Source: a virus
Taxonomy: Duplodnaviria > Heunggongvirae > Uroviricota > Caudoviricetes
Length of the DNA: 44,368 nt
Strand: one strand, 5' to 3'
Virus record (IMG/VR): IMGVR_UViG_2541047889_000001
Shown piece after piece: positions 22,854-31,409 of this stretch. The number at the start of each line of letters is the position of its first letter. Positions within the stretch are counted from its first letter, which is position 1. Below the pieces are notes generated by a model. That model did no database searches and was not told the origin of the DNA. It saw only the letters and a list, made by a program, of their open reading frames with translations. Both the position numbers and the translations under genes were made by a program.

Positions 22854-23033
22854 ATGGTTAGTAAAAGCAAGGCGCATTGCCGCCGCATGCTGCAGGCATT
22901 GCAACAGACGAGAGCAGGTATTTTTGACCAGTTGGAAAACTGCCAGCATACTTTGCCCGAGTATATCGCCATCTCATCGGAAACCAGTGCAACTCTTATT
23001 CATCGGGTTCCACCAGAGAAAAAGAAGAAATGA
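22854..23033 (+). CDS. Hypothetical small protein (59 aa)
   Basis: ATG at 22854 preceded by a strong GAGGAAGGAAAG Shine-Dalgarno; basic C-terminal KKKK. No family recognised. Confidence 0.3.
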   Translation: MVSKSKAHCRRMLQALQQTRAGIFDQLENCQHTLPEYIAISSETSATLIHRVPPEKKKK

Positions 23034-23155
23034 ACAGTGAGGCGTTGTGTGGCATACAACGCCTTCTTCCATCATTCCTCGTCAGCCATGACAAAAATAT
23101 AACCGCTGGCTCTTTCATTTTTCTCCTGCTTCCAGCCCCTCTCTACCTGGAAGCA

Positions 23156-23482
23156 TCAAGGACGTGACGGCGTAAAGATAAATTGTCTCTTCACTCCCTG
23201 ACAGGGGCGATTCTTTTCAAATCGCCATTTCGCCATGGCCTTCACCACTTCATCACGAAACAAATTATGAGGCTCTGAGCGGAGAAAAACGATCCGTGTC
23301 ACAGTCCCATCAGCACCAATATCGAACTTAACCTCAACCAGCCCCTTGATATAATTTGCTGCAGCATATTCCGGATATCGTGGATACACCGTCACTAATT
23401 GCCGGGGCTCATCAGCTTTTTGCTGCGAGCATCCCACTGCCAGGACAGATAACAGAAAAAGTAGTAAAAGGCGTCTTTTCAT
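23156..23482 (-). CDS. Small lipoprotein with a TonB C-terminal-like domain
   Basis: Start at MKRRLLLLFLLSVLAVGC (lipobox AVGC) followed by YPRYPEYAAANYIKGLVEVKFDIGADGTVTRIVFLRS, a pattern typical of the TonB C-terminal fold. Confidence 0.5.
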   Translation of the reverse strand: MKRRLLLLFLLSVLAVGCSQQKADEPRQLVTVYPRYPEYAAANYIKGLVEVKFDIGADGTVTRIVFLRSEPHNLFRDEVVKAMAKWRFEKNRPCQGVKRQFIFTPSRP

Positions 23483-23962
23483 TTTTATTCCTACGGGTCT
23501 TATTCTGACAATATATCCTGTGTTCCAGACTGCCACATCACCACATCCTGTGCCATTATCTGACTCACATTACATACATCGCATCGGGATACAGTAGTAG
23601 CACTTTCTGTAATACAGCTTCCTGTTTCTTCCACCATCGCACCGGGATAAACCCGCGAATCATTAACGCGGTAAAAACCCGGTGTGCATCGTTTTTAATT
23701 ATTCCCGCACACTCACGCAGAAGGAATTCCCCGTCGGGCTACGGTCATGGTTAATGCGGGAATACGGCGACGATACAGCGCAGCTAAAAGGGTAATGGAC
23801 GGATAGACCGGTTTATTTCATTCCACAGGATTCTGAGTGTCCCCAACTTCCTCCAATAGTCTGAGCCCACCTGTGTAGTTTTAATTTTCATCAATCCATT
23901 TAACTATCGTTTAATTGTTGTCACATAGGATTCTGCCGTTTTTAACAATGCAGGATAATAAG

Positions 23963-24256
23963 ATGAAAAAAATGTTGTTTTCTGCCGCTCTGGCAATGCT
24001 TATTACAGGATGTGCTCAACAGACGTTTACTGTTGGAAACAAACCTACAGCAGTAACACCAAAGGAAACCATCACCCATCATTTCTTCGTTTCGGGAATT
24101 GGACAGGAGAAAACTGTTGATGCAGCCAAAATTTGTGGCGGCGCAGAAAATGTTGTTAAAACAGAAACCCAGCAAACATTCGTAAATGGATTGCTCGGTT
24201 TTATTACTTTAGGCATTTATACTCCGCTGGAAGCGCGTGTGTATTGCTCACAATAA
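23963..24256 (+). CDS. bor: Bor lipoprotein (serum-resistance, Iss-like)
   Basis: 97 aa, MKKMLFSAALAMLITGCAQQTFTVGNKPTAVTPKETITHHFFVSGIGQEK...ARVYCSQ; matches lambda Bor from memory. Oriented opposite to the late operon as in lambda. Confidence 0.9.
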   Translation: MKKMLFSAALAMLITGCAQQTFTVGNKPTAVTPKETITHHFFVSGIGQEKTVDAAKICGGAENVVKTETQQTFVNGLLGFITLGIYTPLEARVYCSQ

Positions 24257-24287
24257 TTGCATGAGTTGCCCATCGATATGGGCAGCT

Positions 24288-24749
24288 CTATCTGCACTGC
24301 TCATTAATATACTTCTGGGTTCCTTCCAGTTGTTTTTGCATAGTGATCAGCCTCTCTCTGAGGGTGAAATAATCCCGTTCAGCGGTGTCTGCCAGTCGGG
24401 GGGAGGCTGCATTATCCACGCCGGAGGCGGTGGTGGCTTCACGCACTGACTGACAGACTGCTTTGATGTGCAACCGACGACGACCAGCGGCAACATCATC
24501 ACGCAGAGCATCATTTTCAGCTTTCGCATCAGCTAACTCCTTCGTGTATTTTGCATCGAGCGCAGCAACATCACGCTGACGCATCTGTATGTCAGTAATT
24601 GCCGCGTTCGCCAGCGTCAGTTCTCTGGCATTTTTGTCGCGCTGGGCTTTGTAGGTAATCGCGTTATCGCGGTAATGATTAACAGCCCAAGACAGGCAGA
24701 CGATGATGCAGATAACCAGAGCGGAGATAATCGCGGCAACTCTTCTCAC
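24288..24749 (-). CDS. Rz: Inner-membrane spanin Rz
   Basis: Start assigned to GTG 24749 ([39 protein letters not shown]...) with GGGGGA upstream, overlapping the endolysin stop. Near-identical to lambda Rz from memory. Confidence 0.9.
24347..24529 (-). CDS. Rz1: Outer-membrane lipoprotein spanin Rz1, embedded in the +1 frame of Rz
   Basis: 60 aa, [60 protein letters not shown]; lipobox VVGC and proline-rich region. Matches lambda Rz1 from memory. Confidence 0.9.
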
Positions 24750-25279
24750 TGATCTATCCCCCAACAGGCTAATGCGCTTTCCTGGTCACGACGAATAACC
24801 TGTCCGTAGCAGTTATTTGAACGTGTGCGGCAATCACGCCCACCGTCCTTAATCCACCAGCGAATCGACTCACAGGCACCTTTACGATCACCGGCATTAA
24901 GCCGCTTATAAAACGTCGACGGGAAACACTTACCGGGGCCAATGTTATAGGGGCAAAATGACGCGATACCTGCTTTTTGTGGCTCGGTCAGTGGAACTTT
25001 TATATTACGCTCCACCCATGCCAGCGCCTTATCCCGCTCAATGGCGTTAACCTGGGCGCATTTTTCCTTCGACAGTTTCATGCCCGGAATAACAGGTTTA
25101 CCATCCACCACCGTGGCACCCCGGCAAATGGTCCATATGCCGGAACCATCGCGGTATGCCTTTGTGTGGTTACCCTCTTTTTCGTCCAGAAACTGGTCAA
25201 GTATCTGAGGAGCAGACGCGCCTGCGGCAATCAGCGCCAGAACAGCAGCCGACAGGCCGTATCTGATTTTTACGTTCAT
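24746..25279 (-). CDS. R: Endolysin (phage lysozyme) with N-terminal signal-anchor-release-like segment
   Basis: 177 aa, [56 protein letters not shown]...; resembles E. coli prophage lysozymes (RrrQ/YdfQ-like) from memory. Confidence 0.85.
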
Positions 25280-25413
25280 GGATATTTATCAGGATTTATC
25301 GGTTTCTGAACCCTGGATATGTTAAGCATTCAGCCCGTCAGTGGTAGGACACTGGCGCTCTGGTTAAGGATTATGGGGGATGCTGGCTGAGCTACCCCAT
25401 CTGAGGATTTGAT

Positions 25414-25653
25414 ATGCAAAAAGAAGTTTTTATCAATATTACAGCTGACTGCTCATCTCCTGCATCAACAGCAAAAGAAATTGAAGCTCTTAAATATATG
25501 ATTACAGTAATATTTTCCGTATTGGACCAGAATGAAAAAAATGGAATCATTCATCAATTAAATGAACATGTAAATAATCCATATATCAAAAGCAATCTGG
25601 AAATGCTGCTACCAATGAAAGATATTGGAAAACCAACTGAAACAAAAGGCTAA
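25414..25653 (+). CDS. Hypothetical protein, AT-rich, convergent with the late operon
   Basis: 79 aa; ATG at 25414 preceded by GAGGA with 7-nt spacing. No family recognised. Confidence 0.35.
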   Translation: MQKEVFINITADCSSPASTAKEIEALKYMITVIFSVLDQNEKNGIIHQLNEHVNNPYIKSNLEMLLPMKDIGKPTETKG

Positions 25654-25964
25654 CAACCAGTAATCGAGTTATCTGAACTGTTAATTTTTATGGTATACCG
25701 CGCCTCTGAACAGGGGCGCGTTTCTGGCAACAGCTCGTCCCCTTCACATAACCCGGCAGCAACATCCAGGAAGACCTGTCTGATGCTCCTTCTGGCTGCA
25801 GCCTCATAAAACTCCAGCGCGGCACCTTCAACACGGTCCAGCGAGATGTCCAGGTCAAAAATTTCACCGTCAAAGCGTTTTTTGTCCCGTAACGCTAAAG
25901 TTACCGTAACTTTATTCTCAAAATTGCGGATCCCTTTCACAATCAGTTCATAGTTTTGAGTCAT
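25650..25964 (-). CDS. YdfR-like protein (DUF1327-type) inserted between holin and endolysin
   Basis: 104 aa; the position (between holin and lysozyme) and length match the Qin prophage ydfR arrangement as remembered. The family name is from memory and unverified. Confidence 0.5.
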   Translation of the reverse strand: MTQNYELIVKGIRNFENKVTVTLALRDKKRFDGEIFDLDISLDRVEGAALEFYEAAARRSIRQVFLDVAAGLCEGDELLPETRPCSEARYTIKINSSDNSITGC

Positions 25965-25968
25965 TGAA

Positions 25969-26184
25969 TTACTCTCCCCGTGCAGCCTTACGCTTATCTT
26001 CTTTAATCTTGAAATAAAGGTTTGTCAGGTACGTCAGCAGGCCAAATACCAGGCTACCCAGCACACCTATTGCCGCCCACTGTGAGGGCGTGACTTTATC
26101 GAGCAACTGTAAAAACCAGTACCCGGCACTACCTGCTGAGGTGCCATAGGCGACACCCGTTGTTAACTTATCCATGGATTTCAT
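25969..26184 (-). CDS. S: Class II holin / pinholin (phage 21 S-like) with dual-start motif
   Basis: 71 aa, [71 protein letters not shown]; Met1 and Met4 (MKSM) give antiholin and holin starts as in phage 21 S. Confidence 0.88.
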
Positions 26185-26320
26185 AACCCCACCTCGCAGA
26201 CAAAGCGGGTGTAAATTAAGGGGATACTACGTATCGCAATAAAGGCAGAAACGTAACAGATTCGGAGTCAGTGAATAACTCAGGTATTGGGTTATCAGCT
26301 AATATCGAGACTCAAAAAAT

Positions 26321-26347
26321 GGAAAAACCCGCTCGACGGCGGGTTTA
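26321..26347 (-). terminator. Rho-independent terminator; candidate late terminator tR' upstream of the holin
   Basis: Minus strand AAACCCGC-CGTCGA-GCGGGTTTTT, about 140 nt upstream of the holin start in an AT-rich intergenic region. The palindrome could also act on the plus strand. Confidence 0.45.
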
Positions 26348-26773
26348 AGCTGTGTGACGAAGTAACCACTCTTAACAGCATAACCAATTTTTTACGTACG
26401 TAAACTACTAAATGATATTTGTGAGAATGCCACCGAGTGTTCAAAACACCACCACAAATACATAAGAAAACTTCAACAAATAACCAATGAATAATTTCCG
26501 ATGTTATTTTTAGTTTGTTTAAATTAAGCTAAAGAATTATAGAGTGCTTATAAATAAGTGCCATTAATATAAATTAGCTAATAGATTTATTTTCGTTCAA
26601 ACAAGAGCCATGAATAGGATTAGATAGAAAAGGTTCAGATAAAAATAGAGATCTACTTCACAAATTAAATGAGAAACTAAAACTTACATCTTGAAATAAT
26701 CGCATTGATTAGATGAATATTTATCGCGCAGTGACATCATTTTTTAATAATAGTTCAAAAAAAAGGGCGTACA

Positions 26774-27856
26774 ATGAAAAAATTAACAGTGGCAATTTCT
26801 GCTGTAGCTGCATCAGTACTGATGGCGATGTCTGCTCAGGCAGCTGAAATTTATAATAAAGACAGTAACAAGCTGGATCTATACGGGAAAGTTAATGCCA
26901 AGCACTACTTCTCCTCTAATGATGCAGATGATGGTGATACTACTTATGCCCGTCTTGGCTTCAAAGGTGAAACCCAAATCAACGATCAACTGACTGGTTT
27001 CGGTCAGTGGGAATATGAATTCAAAGGCAACCGTGCTGAATCTCAAGGTTCTTCCAAAGACAAAACCCGTCTTGCATTTGCAGGCCTGAAATTTGGTGAT
27101 TACGGCTCAATCGATTACGGCCGTAACTACGGTGTAGCATACGACATCGGTGCGTGGACTGACGTCCTGCCAGAATTCGGTGGTGATACCTGGACCCAAA
27201 CAGATGTGTTCATGACTGGTCGCACTACTGGTGTTGCAACTTATCGTAACAACGACTTCTTTGGTCTGGTCGATGGCCTGAACTTTGCTGCTCAGTATCA
27301 GGGTAAAAATGACCGCACTGACGTAACTGAAGCCAATGGTGATGGTTTCGGTTTCTCCACTACTTATGAGTATGAAGGATTCGGCGTGGGTGCAACCTAT
27401 GCTAAATCAGATCGCACTGACGGTCAGGTCGCCTATGGTAAGAGCAAATTCAATGCCTCCGGCAAAAATGCGGAAGTATGGGCTGCAGGCCTGAAATATG
27501 ATGCGAACAATATCTATCTGGCTACCACATATTCTGAAACTCAGAATATGACCGTTTTTGGTAATAACCATATTGCAAACAAAGCACAAAACTTTGAAGC
27601 AGTAGCACAATATCAGTTTGACTTCGGTCTGCGACCATCTGTTGCTTACCTTCAGTCAAAAGGTAAAGACCTTGGTGTTCATGGTGACCGAGACTTAGTC
27701 AAGTATGTCGATGTCGGTGCTACTTACTACTTTAATAAAAACATGTCCACTTTTGTTGATTACAAAATCAACTTAATTGACGATAGTAAGTTTACCAAAA
27801 CAGCTGGTATTGATACCGACGACATCGTCGCTGTAGGTCTGGTTTATCAGTTCTAA
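26774..27856 (+). CDS. Outer-membrane general porin (OmpC/OmpF family; phage Lc / NmpC-like)
   Basis: 360 aa; signal peptide [23 protein letters not shown] followed by [17 protein letters not shown]...; ends VGLVYQF. Oriented opposite to Q and the lysis genes, as for nmpC in DLP12. Confidence 0.92.
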
Positions 27857-27884
27857 TCTGACTTACGAAAAAGATATGTTGCGG

Positions 27885-27914
27885 GAGGCTTTGCCTCCGC
27901 AACATATAAGTGGA
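27885..27914 (-). terminator. Long perfect hairpin between porin and Q; terminator-like on the minus strand
   Basis: atgttgcgggaggc-tttg-gcctccgcaacat with a T5 run following on the minus strand (plus strand aaaaa at 27878..27882). Confidence 0.45.
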
Positions 27915-27993
27915 GCCCTCAAGCCACTTCCTTTAGAAGCACTACCTTGCTTCTTACTATATAAACCTTCTGTTATATATTACCCTTTATTTT

Positions 27994-28018
27994 GGGGGCG
28001 TTTCCACGCCCCATTTTT
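27994..28018 (+). terminator. Rho-independent terminator (plus strand) downstream of the porin gene
   Basis: ggggcgt-ttcc-acgcccc followed by atttttaa on the plus strand. Confidence 0.5.
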
Positions 28019-28044
28019 AATAACTTTTAGTAAACAATTGCATA

Positions 28045-28428
28045 TCAATTAGAATTATTAGCAACGATATCCATATCTAACCGGATATCTAATGCCATTA
28101 ACATCCCTTCAATTATGCCCTCAGCCTTCTGTAACCTTTTCCCGATATAACCATCCGAGCAGCAATGCTTACTTGCCAGTGACATGAATGTCATACCACA
28201 TACATAATAATCTACTAATAAATCGTGTAAATCGCTGTTGTTCTTTTTCAGACGGGCCATGCACCCGCAAATGATCATCGCGTCATCGTCACAACATTGC
28301 GGGCGAGATTTTACTTTTGAAGGAATTAATCCCTTAAAACCGGCGGCAACGGACGACCTGGTCACATCTTCATGATTATTAGCCGCCCACGCTCCCCAAC
28401 GCTCAAGAACCATCTGAATATCACGCAT
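28045..28428 (-). CDS. Q: Late-gene antiterminator Q (phage 82 / QuuD-like)
   Basis: Start at ATG 28428 ([23 protein letters not shown]...) with GGAG upstream; Cys-rich zinc-binding region [16 protein letters not shown]. Matches DLP12 QuuD from memory. Confidence 0.85.
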
Positions 28429-28513
28429 CAACTTACTCCACAAAAATCAGACCAGAACGCCAATTACAAGCAAAAATCAACAAAACAGTATTAGTTGATT
28501 GTTATCTCTGACT

Positions 28514-28651
28514 TCATACTCCTGCTCCTGTCAGGGTTTTGGCGTAATTCTTCAGTATTCGGTAATCGGTCAAAACAGAACCAGGAAAACGATATAAGCG
28601 CAGGCGCACCCAGCGGCGGCGAAGACGCTCTGCCATATAAGACTCAAACAT
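28514..28651 (-). CDS. ylcG: Small ORF in the ylcG position (45 aa)
   Basis: Not in the ORF track (under 60 aa). Translated by hand: [45 protein letters not shown]. Its ATG overlaps the rusA stop as TGATG. Position matches DLP12 ylcG; sequence identity is not verified. Confidence 0.5.
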   Translation of the reverse strand: MFESYMAERLRRRWVRLRLYRFPGSVLTDYRILKNYAKTLTGAGV

Positions 28652-29013
28652 CATTCATCTCCCAGTTCAGTGATAGTCAGCTCCAGCTTCCCACCTTTGG
28701 TAACGGGCATCTTCACAACGCGGTAATCAACGACCTGAGCATCATCCAGCCAGAAACCTGCTTTGGTGAGTGCGTCAAAAGCGGCCTTTTGCAGATTATC
28801 AAGGTCACGGCGACGGCGATCCGGCATGTGGCACTCAATGCTGATTTTCACAGGAATAGCCAGGCCGATATCCAGCATTGCGTTTTTAATGATTCGGGCG
28901 ACATTATCGCGGTATGCCTGCCCCTCTGCGCTGATATGCGTGCGTCCGCGATTATGGCGGTAATAGCGATTATTGCTCGGCGGCCAGGGTAATGTGATGC
29001 TGTAGGTATTCAC
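28651..29013 (-). CDS. rusA: Holliday junction resolvase RusA
   Basis: 120 aa, [50 protein letters not shown]...; matches DLP12 RusA from memory. Confidence 0.93.
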
Positions 29014-29300
29014 GCCTCAATAACCCCCTCTTTCAACCAGATAACCTGTGTTCTCGCCATACCTTCCAGCGCGCATTCTTTTGCATATCCAGCGTCAACA
29101 AAATGCGTGCGACGGTCGATTTCGTCGTGGCAGGCAGAACATGCAATGGTGGCAATCAGGTCTGGCGGTTTGGTACCGGTGCCACACAATCCAGCCAGCC
29201 GGATATGTGCCAGTACAGACGTTTCAGAATTGCCATTACATACGCCAGGGATTCTTACCTGGCATTCCCGACCACGCGCTGCTTTTCTCAAATCAGCCAT
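29010..29300 (-). CDS. ybcO: YbcO-like nin-region protein (Cys-rich, putative nuclease)
   Basis: Start at ATG 29300 ([24 protein letters not shown]...); Cys-rich CSACHDE. Matches DLP12 YbcO from memory. The track ORF extends 13 codons upstream. Confidence 0.75.
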
Positions 29301-29463
29301 GATTCCTCCTTGCTGCCAGTCGCAACCATTTTTTATCAACCAGGCTGGCGGTATATCCGAGCAGAGTTGGTATTTCGGATGGCTTCAGCTCAGGTTTACG
29401 CTTACGACGATTTGGTACTTTGTAGATGTGTCCGTTCATGACACGAATAAGCGGTGTAGCCAT
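29293..29463 (-). CDS. ninE: NinE
   Basis: Not in the ORF track (56 aa). Translated by hand: [56 protein letters not shown]. Its ATG overlaps the ninB stop and its stop overlaps the ybcO start. Matches NinE from memory. Confidence 0.75.
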   Translation of the reverse strand: MATPLIRVMNGHIYKVPNRRKRKPELKPSEIPTLLGYTASLVDKKWLRLAARRNHG

Positions 29464-29918
29464 TACGCCTCCTGCTTGTCGCGCAGCAGCTGGAACTCGC
29501 AGCTCTGCGGAATAGTCAGGTGGCAGCCAATATTCATCGCCCAGGCTTCAACCTTACACAGGAAGACATACATCTCTCCGGTATCAAGATCGGAGGTATG
29601 GCGTAACGACTGGATAGTAGTGATTTCGCCGGTTACGACATCAACCAGGTCCTTGGTTTCATAACCGAGGTATGTGTGTTTGAGAGCATCTTTTACCCAT
29701 GCTGCGGTAGCGAACGATTTCCCCCTGCTGATGAGGTATTCACTGATTTCGCTGTACCACATATGGCTGAGTGCATTCTGGGAAAGACTGCGTTTCTCAC
29801 GCCACGGTTTAAGCACCATGCGAAAGCATTTTCCGTCCTCCAGATAAGGCTGGATCTGCTGGCCGATAGCGATGAAGTTACCGCGATGCAGTTTGATGCC
29901 ATCTTGTGGTAGGTTCAC
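29463..29918 (-). CDS. ninB: NinB-family recombination protein (YbcN-like)
   Basis: 151 aa, [62 protein letters not shown]...; matches DLP12 YbcN from memory. Confidence 0.8.
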
Positions 29919-30365
29919 GCTTCACCTCCACAGAGGTCAGACGCTGGATGCAAAAAAACGCAGGTGCATTTCTGCATCTGTGAAGGGAGAAGAGAGTTTG
30001 GATTGTGTGTGCGCATAAACGTCCCCGTTTAGCGCAGAAGTCACCGGAGTTGTTCAGGCTCCGGTGATACAATTATGGCGAATTGATTATTCATAATCAA
30101 ACAAGATAAGGTCTCAAACTTCATGCAAGCCAAGATTTATTTCTGACAGAATTATACAAAGAAGCTATTGGTCAGAATCTACTCGGACTGTAAAACATAC
30201 GCATAACCTTAAGCTCTCACTTTAAGCATTGTTGAAATAATAGCCGTCAAGTACAACCTTAACCACGACTGGGATATTTCTCTGGCTACCACGAGTTGTA
30301 CGGCTATTAAACTGCCGTTAAATTCAGTAAGAGAATTTCATCCGATAAGTCAAGGCATGTAAAAC

Positions 30366-31409
30366 ATGAAAATTAACAAGATATTATCATCTGCAACACT
30401 ATTGTATGGTATGTCAATGGCCATGTCGGTCGGGAGTTGTGCAACACCTGTCCAGACTAATCTTCCTGGTTACACCCCGGGTGCAGATATCATTAGTGTT
30501 TCACCGACCAGAAACCAGGTCGATCTCATTGGTGATGTTGTTTATTCCCAGATAAAAGGAACTCGTTCTGTCAGACAGCTTCACATGTCAGTTCTTGTCC
30601 CGCGAACAAATGATTTAAAACCAGCCATTATTTATTATCCCGGCGGCGGATTCATGTCTTCTGAACATGACAAATTTATTGAAATGAGAATGGCTCTGGC
30701 AGAAGCTGGTTTTGTTGTGGCCGCTGTAGAATACAGAACAATTCCTGATACATTTCCAGCACCAGTTGAGGATGGAAAAGCTGCAATACGTTACCTGAGA
30801 GAGCATGCCAGCAATTATGGGATTGATCCTCAAAGAATCGGAGTTCTGGGTGACTCTGCCGGTGGATGGCTTGCCCAGATGATGGGAACTACAAATGGTG
30901 ACAAAACCTTTGATAAAGGTGACTTTCTTCAGCAATCCTCAGATGTTCAGGCAGTTGCCACACTTTATGGGATTTCTGACTTGTTGAATATTGGCGAGGG
31001 GTTCCCTGAATCAGTGCAGGAGGTTCATCGCTCTCCTGCCGTAACCGAAGCCTTAATGATCAATGGCCCTGCATTCAGAAATTTTGCGGGAGCCCCCATC
31101 ACAGCGTCAAAAGAAAAAGCGCTAAACGCCAGTCCAATCGGACATATGAAAGGAGTAAAACCCCCATTTCTTATTATGCATGGTAGCAAAGACACTCTGG
31201 TTTCACCTGAGCAAAGCGCCAAACTATTCAGGATGTTGAAGAAGAACGGTGATAACGCTGAGTACGTGCTGGTAGAAGGGGCCGAGCATGGCGATAATAC
31301 ATGGTATCAGCCAATTATTATAAACAGAGTTGTTGAGTGGTTTACTAAAAACCTGGGAACCCCCATAAAAAACGCTACCCAACAACAAAAAACAAACGCT
31401 GACCTGTAA
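30366..31409 (+). CDS. Lipoprotein alpha/beta-hydrolase-fold esterase/lipase
   Basis: 347 aa; lipoprotein-type signal MKINKILSSATLLYGMSMAMSVGSC; oxyanion-hole motif YYPGGGF and nucleophile elbow GDSAGG. Flanked by AT-rich DNA and opposite in orientation to the surrounding operon. Confidence 0.75.
   Translation: MKINKILSSATLLYGMSMAMSVGSCATPVQTNLPGYTPGADIISVSPTRNQVDLIGDVVYSQIKGTRSVRQLHMSVLVPRTNDLKPAIIYYPGGGFMSSEHDKFIEMRMALAEAGFVVAAVEYRTIPDTFPAPVEDGKAAIRYLREHASNYGIDPQRIGVLGDSAGGWLAQMMGTTNGDKTFDKGDFLQQSSDVQAVATLYGISDLLNIGEGFPESVQEVHRSPAVTEALMINGPAFRNFAGAPITASKEKALNASPIGHMKGVKPPFLIMHGSKDTLVSPEQSAKLFRMLKKNGDNAEYVLVEGAEHGDNTWYQPIIINRVVEWFTKNLGTPIKNATQQQKTNADL

Follow-up and report, generated by a model that had tools for sequence, protein, structure and literature searches.

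In a tailed-phage genome of 44,368 nucleotides (the whole stretch analysed, hereafter the window), a porin gene lies on the opposite strand between the late antiterminator gene Q and the holin gene. This order raises the question of whether late transcription starts beside Q and runs antisense through the porin gene or starts downstream of it, and of where the first terminator of the late operon lies. The account that emerged, which is considered highly probable as a whole, is that a porin cargo cassette sits between Q and Q's target promoter, pR', in a prophage identical to Perceval.

In this region the window shows 100% identity to Escherichia phage Perceval, which strain LF82 carries as a prophage; the phage is already published, and its porin is catalogued there as an expressed moron (PMC9928086). 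The order Q, opposite-strand porin, holin was found in 2388 of 5426 complete E. coli genomes (about 44%). The gene is the Lc/NmpC porin gene long known from lambda-like E. coli prophages, and its arrangement is ordinary: PA-2 Lc and DLP12 nmpC have been familiar since the 1980s, and nothing in this biology is new. The lc porin region of phage PA-2 is reportedly the work of Blasband, Marcotte and Schnaitman in 1986. As a discovery the locus is thus of small importance, and the practical use of the analysis is annotation, namely coordinates for the late promoter, a candidate Q site and the first terminator of a widespread cassette. Annotation of pR' or its terminator was absent from the records inspected (Perceval, 434B, K-12 DLP12, SfII and Stx2 phage 86).

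The porin cassette

The genes that frame the cassette, and the elements read within it, are as follows.

25969..26184, minus strand: S21-type pinholin with dual start (MKSMDK), the first late gene (PF04971 at 2e-35)
26408..26773, plus strand: AT-rich porin regulatory region (GC 0.276; homology to PA-2 and DLP12)
26647..26662, plus strand: CRP-like site AGAGA-N6-TCACA, aligned with the CRP site annotated in PA-2 J02580
26692..26700, plus strand: candidate extended -10 of the porin gene, TGaAATAAT (pattern reading of the sequence)
26756..26730, minus strand: sigmaE-type promoter match GAACT-N17-TCACT, reading away from the porin gene towards the lysis genes (pattern match)
26763..26767, plus strand: Shine-Dalgarno sequence of the porin gene, AAGGG
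26774..27856, plus strand: intact general porin of the Lc/NmpC/OmpD type, 360 aa including the signal peptide (Porin_1)
27857..28018, plus strand: porin 3' UTR of about 160 nt, the ipeX equivalent, ending at an intrinsic terminator
27868..27907, minus strand: terminator-like hairpin facing Q, with a 15-16 bp stem and one bulge, then CUUUUU
27995..28018, plus strand: intrinsic terminator GGGGCG-UUUCCA-CGCCCC followed by AUUUUU (terminator scan; fold -13.8 kcal/mol, z -3.3)
28045..28428, minus strand: late antiterminator Q (QuuD type, Q21/Q933W family), 127 aa (PF06530 at 7e-52)

The porin matches Pfam Porin_1 (PF00267) at 1.9e-151 (504.7 bits, cut-off 23.7) over profile positions 1-337 of 337, and phrog_410 at 3e-223. 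Its closest PDB relatives are OmpC, OmpK36 and PhoE (about 1e-135 to 1e-120). In the translation, the signal peptide ends in AQA and is followed by AEIYN, the PEFGG constriction motif of loop 3 is present, and the C-terminus reads VGLVYQF with an aromatic last residue. The protein is 91% identical (331/365) to Lc of PA-2; the 34 substitutions and two short indels that separate the two concentrate at residues 181-235, 262-266 and 335-350, which are probably surface loops. Among 28 cassettes in viral contigs, porin identity ranges from 91 to 100%. By sequence, the porin is therefore an Lc/NmpC orthologue and a member of the 16-strand general-porin family, to which Salmonella OmpD and the chromosomal OmpC, OmpF and PhoE also belong. 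Unlike the chromosomal porins, it is carried by a phage and has a separate AT-rich regulatory region, and its 3' UTR has been linked to host-porin repression. The preliminary description, which had read an intact Lc/NmpC-like porin between Q and the holin, encoded on the other strand, was correct on this point. Porins of this type alter antibiotic permeability, heat tolerance and phage receptor display. The RefSeq label for the gene is 'ompC'.

The similarity to PA-2 and DLP12 extends to the flanks of the gene. PA-2 lc (J02580) shares order and orientation, with lysis genes, intergenic region and opposite-strand porin. The porin upstream region is about 90% identical among PA-2, DLP12 and the Perceval-type phage, and the 3' UTR and downstream region is 93% identical to PA-2 and 94% to DLP12 ipeX. 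DLP12 of K-12 further shares the cassette, the pR' block, the S21-type holin, the endolysin, the spanins and Bor. However, an IS5 element splits its nmpC after codon 346 and DLP12 itself is defective, whereas the Perceval gene is intact and the phage active.

The 589-bp region between porin and holin, with a mean GC of 0.333, had been described as very AT-rich. This holds for its porin-proximal part, 26408..26773, whose GC content falls in the lowest 0.2% of 366-bp windows within the 44-kb window, but not for the holin-proximal 223 bp (26185..26407), where GC is a normal 0.426. The AT-rich part is assigned to the regulatory region of the porin itself and not to pR' or tR'.

The sigmaE-type match within this region fits published work on DLP12. 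Expression of the DLP12 lysis genes is reported to be low and RpoE-driven, and these genes are reported to be physiologically active in uninduced K-12. The forward primer of the DLP12 promoter fragment '-121 to +650' in PMC7918800 starts at window position 26846, which would place the published RpoE-dependent +1 near 26725, in keeping with the match. With such a sigmaE-like promoter upstream, pR' and Q would thus not be the sole input to the lysis genes.

At the other end of the cassette, ipeX is described in the literature as belonging to the porin transcript, and this RNA is reported to lower OmpC and OmpF. An Rfam scan of 23000..31000 at E <= 1 returned zero matches, to neither ipeX nor a StxS-like family.

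The Q gene and the late promoter

The Q protein is 95% identical to K-12 quuD and, over residues 5-125, shares about 80% identity with the Q proteins of 933W-type Stx phages, the similarity to 933W Q stopping near codon 121. An ATG at 28428 preceded by GGAG gives the same length as in K-12. A scan of the minus strand between Q and the porin (27857..28044) found no promoter-like sites. What this interval does contain is the hairpin at 27868..27907, a putative terminator that sits 18 nt past the porin stop codon and folds at -23.7 kcal/mol (z -3.9), with 0 of 200 shuffles as good.

A promoter was instead recognized beyond the porin gene, in the part of the intergenic region with normal GC content.

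26404..26370, minus strand: late promoter pR' (assigned by homology with the sequence following Q in Stx phages)
26404..26391, minus strand: perfect 14-bp palindrome TTTACGTACGTAAA, candidate Q-binding element (QBE), -34..-21
26382..26377, minus strand: pR' -10 element TATGCT (homology)
About A26370, minus strand: predicted pR' transcription start (homology to Stx phages)
26346..26314, minus strand: terminator-like hairpin, the tR' candidate, at +25..+46 with a U-tract to +57
26185..26313, minus strand: leader from the hairpin to the holin start, with no further terminator-like element

The stretch 26407..26323 (minus strand) is homologous to the sequence directly 3' of Q in 933W-type Shiga-toxin phages. 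It contains a sigma70-type promoter, TTTACG-N16-TATGCT, upstream of the late genes and homologous to the Sp5 promoter; its -35 is weak (TTTACG, 16-nt spacer), and the first six bases of the palindrome TTTACGTACGTAAA double as that element. The predicted start draws on Sakai Sp5, where a start 7 nt past TATCAT lies exactly 258 nt before the T-run end of the second hairpin and puts a GU/AUU junction at +173. These values agree with the published length of StxS-L (258 nt) and with the RNase E site reported at +173 (Sy et al. 2020, PMC7547250); this use of the Sakai start presumes that coordinates in the paper and in NC_002695.2 differ by 142 nt. The available supplements of PMC7815308 and PMC6131387 list no mapped K-12 5' or 3' ends near essD.

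From the Q stop (28045) to the palindrome (26404) the distance is about 1.64 kb, so the textbook layout of a pR' adjacent to Q is not found here. The separated layout is common to 28 porin loci and to many other cargo loci, and in a set of 120 viral contigs the pR' module lies 3' of PF06530 Q genes, separated from them by about 40 to 3065 nt. Because the search pattern of the collection scan prescribed its 16-mer, the invariance of that 16-mer among those loci is no evidence. Adjacency of Q and pR' is a feature of layout and no functional requirement; it is dispensable because Q acts in trans.

Comparison across Q clades provides further evidence. Palindrome type corresponds to Q clade one-to-one, in 46/46 cases for the Perceval-type clade, in 22/22 and 14/14 for two others, and in several smaller clades. 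Such covariation is the behaviour expected of a QBE, and the palindrome is accordingly regarded as a candidate one. Three independently found lineages share an identical block, TAAGAGTGGTTAC, around the start; no clean -10-like pause hexamer could be placed near it in the initial transcribed region.

Two known systems frame this promoter. The 933W/Sp5 Stx phages, the source of StxS (PMC7547250), have palindrome type TTTACGATCGTAAA in common with it and share the -10 and start-site block, the small 5' hairpin and the first GC-rich hairpin with its U-run. In those phages, pR' abuts the Q stop and the transcript extends to a second terminator, at +258, beyond which tRNAs and stx follow. In contrast, the Perceval-type phage has 1.67 kb of antisense cargo and no second terminator, and its holin follows after 141 nt. 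Phage 21 (PMC6606751; bioRxiv 10.1101/651190) has a Q of the same PF06530 'Q21/Q933W family' and an S21 holin downstream, and its pR' carries a Q site (QBE) between -35 and -10 and an early hairpin with a T7 run. Its Q, however, is only about 33% identical to the present protein. Q21 reads two direct TGAGCA repeats at -25..-12, whereas the candidate site here is a clade-specific 14-bp palindrome at -34..-21; phage 21 also has a pause-type TAAGCT at +2..+7.

Together, the homology of pR' to the 933W-type post-Q region and the absence of promoter-like sites on the minus strand between Q and the porin support a late start downstream of the porin gene, at pR', as the preliminary description had anticipated.

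The promoter-proximal hairpin

The tR' candidate consists of an 8-bp stem, AAACCCGC/GCGGGTTT, at 26346..26325 (minus strand), followed by UUUUUCCAUUUUUU down to 26314, and is located 141 nt upstream of the holin ATG. The stem is modest (-11.5 kcal/mol) and the U-tract is interrupted (UUUUUCCA). Taken alone, the hairpin is not beyond chance, since the scan returned 3 terminator-like sites against 2.1 expected; nor does energy single it out, its folding z-score being -1.4.

The case for the hairpin is comparative. A hairpin with a T-tail is present in 70 of 83 distinct homologous leaders (84%), and in 61 of these it ends by +65; among control segments taken from the same loci the rate is 10-33%. 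Among Q-linked leaders the count is 61/67, and at least four unrelated stem sequences occur with the position conserved. The hairpin is judged real because of this conservation across leaders, which supports reading it as a conserved promoter-proximal terminator-like element of this promoter family; the earlier proposal of a tR' candidate before the holin was thereby strengthened. The PA-2 lineage has one stem mismatch (GCTGG) and fails the hairpin rule used. Neither the terminator scan nor folding found another terminator-like element between pR' and the holin. The leader RNA from pR' is predicted to be about 50-57 nt long. Beyond the hairpin, the segment 26185..26313 shares 73% identity with the sequence before the holin in Shigella phage SfII.

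Mechanism, rival explanations and the cargo slot

These elements suggest the following sequence of events. A 1.67-kb cargo cassette (window about 26408..28075) occupies the space between the Q gene and pR' and brings an intact porin gene oriented opposite to late transcription, with its own AT-rich, presumably CRP-responsive regulatory region that is probably H-NS-silenced. In the lysogen, the porin would be transcribed independently of the phage lytic programme and would change outer-membrane permeability, while its 3' UTR, the ipeX equivalent, would reduce OmpC. OmpC repression and exclusion are established for PA-2 and ipeX, and OmpC reduction is the route by which PA-2 excludes OmpC-dependent phages; this allele would probably act likewise. 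The late operon would start at pR' downstream of the cassette and not beside Q, at or near the predicted position. Without Q, transcripts would mostly halt at the +25..+46 hairpin and yield a leader of about 50 nt, so that expression of the pinholin, SAR-endolysin and spanin genes would be absent or very low. Once the prophage is induced, Q supplied by the early operon would act in trans, binding the palindrome at -34..-21 and loading onto RNA polymerase at a putative pause just past the start. The Q-loaded polymerase would then cross the hairpin into S, R and Rz.

Two other explanations touch the placement of the promoter and the role of the cassette. The late promoter could adjoin Q, as in lambda and 933W, with late transcripts running antisense through the whole porin gene; the conserved pre-holin block would then be a mere leader or processing element. 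A pR' is normally found directly after Q genes, and MAFFT aligned GTTTAC..TAAAA..GTTAT just past the Q stop with the pR' block. That 'ghost' promoter was rejected, however, as its local alignment score of 16 compares with 14.4 +/- 2.9 for shuffled sequence (p about 0.29). The minus strand of 27857..28044 also carries a strong terminator-like hairpin in place of any promoter-like site, and the full palindrome, -10 and start block at 26404..26362 tracks Q clade across gaps of up to 3 kb. A Q-adjacent start is thus very improbable. Likewise, the cassette could be a silent relic like K-12 nmpC, with no role in the lysogen and decayed DNA in place of a regulatory region. Foreign AT-rich DNA is commonly silenced, and the gene is broken by IS5 both in K-12 and in the lab phage 434B. 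Yet the porin ORF here is intact and full length, and the upstream conservation among PA-2, DLP12 and this phage includes the annotated CRP site. Whether the porin is silent in lysogens, one of the points on which the preliminary description had staked its reading, is answered by LF82 lysogen RNA-seq, in which NmpC of Perceval lies 10-fold above prophage background (PMC9928086). Similarly, mRNA and protein of the CFT073 nmpC copies have been reported at 37 C, and ompC was lower. A silent relic is therefore an explanation to which almost no credence is given.

The strength of the hairpin is the point on which an alternative carries more weight, though it too is considered unlikely. The element at 26346..26325 might be no tight tR' but a leaky attenuator, or mainly a stabilising 3' end of the leader RNA, in which case the silence of the lysis genes would rest on the weak pR', Rho, RNA decay or sigmaE input. 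The 258-nt StxS-L of the Stx phages includes the homologous hairpin, which some polymerases must therefore traverse in the absence of Q; the mapped tR' of the Stx phages is the second hairpin at +258, which the Perceval-type phage lacks. The modest stem, the interrupted U-tract, the mismatch in the PA-2 lineage and the activity of the DLP12 lysis genes reported for uninduced K-12 point the same way. Against this stand the retention of hairpin and T-tail in 84% of distinct leaders despite unrelated stems, the early terminator-like element also found in the phage-21-type pR', and a pre-holin stretch that offers no alternative. RNA-seq and Term-seq libraries usually fail to retain RNAs as short as about 50 nt, and the lack of such an RNA in the StxS study consequently carries little weight. 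Termination at the conserved hairpin in the absence of Q is the preferred reading.

The only part of the analysis that might merit follow-up is a comparative by-product, the variable Q-to-pR' interval together with the palindromes specific to Q clades. The interval may be a dedicated hypervariable cargo slot in lambdoid phages of the Q933W/QuuD family, in which the porin would be one of at least 15 alternative cassettes, most of them antisense to late transcription. Among these would be candidate anti-phage systems such as PDC-M53 and an OLD-like ATPase paired with a methyltransferase; PADLOC gave no match for most alternative cassettes. The Q proteins of this family may recognise the clade-specific palindrome at -34..-21, which, if true, implies a binding geometry unlike that of the direct repeats read by Q21. 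The pR' leader of roughly 50 nt could also, by analogy with StxS, have a role in trans as a small RNA. Taken as a joint proposal, the cargo slot, the distinct palindrome geometry and the trans-acting leader remain tentative, and their all being correct is given somewhat short of an even chance.

The AIEC prophage small RNA svsR is unrelated to this region, as it maps to cI. The holin is 100% identical to essD-type S in many loci. Relative to DLP12, the window has an additional DUF1327 gene together with an AT-rich islet between S and R.

An intact lc/nmpC porin opposite the late operon

The ORF between Q and the holin matches the Pfam Porin_1 profile from end to end (1.9e-151), and its translation carries a signal peptide, the PEFGG loop-3 motif and a C-terminal phenylalanine. 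These features bear out the preliminary description: the porin is intact and lies antisense to the late operon. The nearest solved structures are OmpC, OmpK36 and PhoE. The lysozyme of the lysis cassette, which has an N-terminal hydrophobic stretch, is read as SAR-type.

Genes at the porin locus (Q, lysis genes and Bor from ORF listing and Pfam scan)
28428..28045, - strand: Q (PF06530)
26774..27856, + strand: porin ORF, 360 aa, between Q and holin
26184..25969, - strand: S21-type pinholin
after the pinholin, - strand: DUF1327 gene, lysozyme, Rz/Rz1
beyond Rz/Rz1 in gene order, + strand: Bor

Sequence comparison identifies the locus as the classical lc/nmpC cassette. The porin protein shares 91% identity with Lc of phage PA-2, while the porin-to-holin intergenic region is ~90% identical, and the porin 3' flank 93-94% identical, to both PA-2 and DLP12 of K-12. 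Its closest counterparts, lc of PA-2 and nmpC/ipeX/quuD/essD of DLP12, belong to the same cassette; in K-12, however, nmpC of DLP12 is disrupted by IS5, whereas the window's porin is intact. The laboratory phage 434B picked up the DLP12 segment and so carries the IS5-disrupted nmpC. Over the 2.6 kb around the porin, the window shows 100% identity with both Escherichia phage Perceval (OV696612) and the chromosome of LF82. At a criterion of ≥80% of the query covered, 2388 of 5426 complete E. coli genomes have the Q-porin-holin layout, as do 36 deposited phages. The feature is already known, and there is nothing new in finding it.

A porin silent in lysogens, which the preliminary description had named as counting against its reading, is excluded by published data from LF82 and CFT073. 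In LF82, the "Outer membrane porin NmpC" of Perceval, a prophage shown to be active as a phage, is listed as a moron transcribed 10-fold over the prophage background in LB (PMC9928086). CFT073 at 37 C shows strong nmpC expression from two prophage copies, as both mRNA and protein, and ompC is lower (PMC12890032).

Other genes in the window were also noted. A 126-aa ORF adjoining bor (23156-23536, - strand) combines a lipoprotein-like N-terminus with a C-terminal TonB domain (1e-12); the LF82 study (PMC9928086) lists it, as "TonB fragment", among the expressed morons of Perceval. Upstream of the NinB/YbcO/RusA-like early genes, an antisense gene (30366-31409, + strand) codes for a 347-aa alpha/beta hydrolase (BD-FAE, 5e-45) whose N-terminus resembles a signal or lipoprotein sequence. 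In phage 434B, a gene for LpxR, a lipid A deacylase, is likewise antisense and lies immediately upstream of the Q region.

The AT-rich region and porin control

The 589-bp porin-holin interval, described earlier as a very AT-rich region of 590 bp, is not uniform in GC. That description holds for 26408..26773 (GC 0.276, in the lowest 0.2% among 366-bp windows of the 44-kb window) but not for 26185..26407 (GC 0.426). The AT-rich part constitutes the upstream region of the porin itself, and the GC-normal part is the late-promoter region. Within the lysis cassette, a second AT-rich islet (25392-25653, GC ~0.30) separates the DUF1327 gene from the endolysin gene; its 79-aa ORF (25414..25653, + strand) matches phrog_21218 (unknown function) over its full length, has no Pfam match and looks like another small antisense moron.

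One of the two CRP sites annotated in the 1986 PA-2 record aligns with AGAGA-N6-TCACA at 26647..26662, and a possible extended -10 of the porin was read at 26692..26700. The other annotated CRP site (J02580 1067-1087) corresponds to window ~26349-26369, in the pR' initial transcribed region GTGGTTACTTCGTCACAC. Its equivalent is also kept in Stx phages without a porin, and a small 5' hairpin is predicted there; this position is probably an element of the leader and not a CRP site of the porin. In the lysogen, the porin would be made from its own promoter, CRP-dependent, temperature-responsive and probably H-NS-silenced, and its 3' UTR would lower OmpC/OmpF, altering permeability and receptor display.

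Terminators between porin and Q
27995..28018, + strand: porin terminator, z -3.3, ending a ~160-nt 3' UTR
27874..27907, - strand: long hairpin and U-run facing Q, downstream of the porin stop codon, dG -23.7, z -3.9

These two convergent terminators are interleaved within window 27868-28018: the hairpin facing Q adjoins the porin stop codon, within the ipeX-equivalent 3' UTR, and the porin's own terminator adjoins the Q stop codon. With this arrangement, an overlap of ~150 nt between the porin transcript and the Q transcript would be expected. During lytic growth, N-modified Q transcripts may pass the 27907..27874 hairpin and run antisense over the porin.

The late promoter and the tR' candidate

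A sensitive BLAST search with the intergenic region matched several hundred Stx-phage records, only via window 26323..26407 and always directly after the Q gene; in Stx2 phage 86 the match starts 15 nt within the end of Q. Over residues 5-125 the window's Q and 933W-type Q are ~80% identical, and only the C-terminal tail sets them apart. The homology of 26407..26323 to the 933W-type pR' region supports the proposal that late transcription starts downstream of the porin. The 933W/Sp5 pR'-StxS region is the same promoter module, there abutting Q. Adjacency of Q and pR', absent from all lc/nmpC phages, is the sole textbook feature lacking here, and it concerns layout, not function.

A study of the StxS small RNA (Sy et al. 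2020, PMC7547250) mapped the 933W-type pR' transcript StxS-L at a length of 258 nt and located an RNase E cut between GU and AUU of a GUAUU at +173. If the Sakai Sp5 transcript is taken to start 7 nt past TATCAT, the distance to the last T of the second hairpin's T-run is exactly 258 nt and a GUAUU falls at +173; the same placement gave the same result in Stx2 phage 86. Absolute coordinates in that study are offset by 142 nt from NC_002695.2, presumably a matter of record version. The start was carried over from Sp5 to the window by alignment.

Late-promoter elements (pR' positions from alignment with Sp5)
26404..26399, - strand: pR' -35 TTTACG, followed by a 16-nt spacer
26382..26377, - strand: pR' -10 TATGCT
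~A26370, - strand: inferred pR' start
26346..26325 (+25..+46), - strand: hairpin with 8-bp stem, then UUUUUCCAUUUUUU

The hairpin proposed earlier as tR' at 26321..26347 was refined to 26346..26325. Taken alone it is unremarkable (folding z -1.4; 3 terminator-like sites observed vs 2.1 expected). Under one fixed rule, a hairpin with a T-rich tail was present in 70 of 83 distinct homologous leaders, 61 ending by +65, against 10-33% for control segments of the same loci. Stems vary by lineage (CCCGCC/GGCGGG, CCTCGC/GCGGGG, ACCGCC/GGTGGG, CCCTGCC/GGCGGGG) while the architecture is kept, and phage-21-type pR' likewise has an early hairpin and a T7 run. Terminator scanning and folding detected no further terminator-like element between the hairpin and the holin ATG, 141 nt downstream. 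Given this result and its conservation in the leaders, the hairpin is a good candidate for tR', and the only one. The preliminary observation is thus confirmed, with the AT-rich span and hairpin coordinates refined, and its interpretation is supported.

In Sp5 and phage 86 (L005:768-795 and L001:715-740 of our viral-contig loci), the homologous hairpin, which has a run of seven U and lies at +24..+45, sits inside the 258-nt StxS-L and is therefore not fully efficient there. The tR' published for Stx phages is the second hairpin at +258, which the window phage lacks. In the window phage, pR' would fire constitutively, with most transcripts stopping at ~+50. After induction, Q would bind a palindrome in pR' and load at a promoter-proximal pause, and the Q-loaded polymerase would pass the hairpin and go on to the genes for lysis and morphogenesis.

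Upstream of pR', a sigmaE-type match was found:
26756..26730, - strand: GAACT-N17-TCACT, divergent from the porin gene

The DLP12 promoter fragment is described as -121 to +650 (PMC7918800). With window 26846 as the first position of its forward primer, the published RpoE-dependent start of the DLP12 lysis promoter comes out near 26725, just past the match. The lysis genes probably have this second, stress-responsive input, which must pass the hairpin too.

Q clades, palindromes and the cargo slot

What seems worth following is limited to two aspects, the cargo slot and the candidate Q sites with their palindromes. Viral contigs were scanned with a 16-mer around the pR' start, TGWTAAGAGTGGTTAC, which returned 120 loci with a PF06530-type Q upstream, at gaps of ~40 to ~3065 nt. 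Within these loci, the search pattern itself forces the 16-mer to be invariant. The window, 933W-type phages and SfII were matched independently by BLAST, and the identity of the 16-mer among them is not pattern-imposed.

Positions -34..-21 (window 26391-26404, - strand) form a palindrome whose type tracks the Q clade without exception: TTTACGWWCGTAAA in 46/46 loci of the QuuD/933W clade, CGCGGTCCGC in all 22 loci of a second clade and GCGTACGC in all 14 of a third, with GGAATTCC, GTCATGAC and GTTATAAC in small clades. It behaves as expected of a Q-binding element and is a candidate for one. Since palindrome type matches Q clade in all loci, the comparison shows that every Q stays paired with its cognate promoter even with cargo between. 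The phage 21 Q system, of the same protein family, uses a different DNA site: two direct TGAGCA repeats at -25..-12, whereas the candidate sites here are palindromic.

The stretch from Q to pR' is a slot for variable cargo: 28 loci have the porin there, and at least 15 different cassettes occur besides it, most of them antisense to late transcription (viral-contig examples include L002:2772-4386, L034, L064, L074, L018 and L096). Many cassettes encode a protein of ~300 aa together with a small multi-pass membrane protein, and the SfII pair matches A and B of the PADLOC candidate system PDC-M53. The L034 cargo encodes an OLD/HEC-04-like ATPase adjoining a 346-aa ORF that, by eye, looks like a cytosine methyltransferase.
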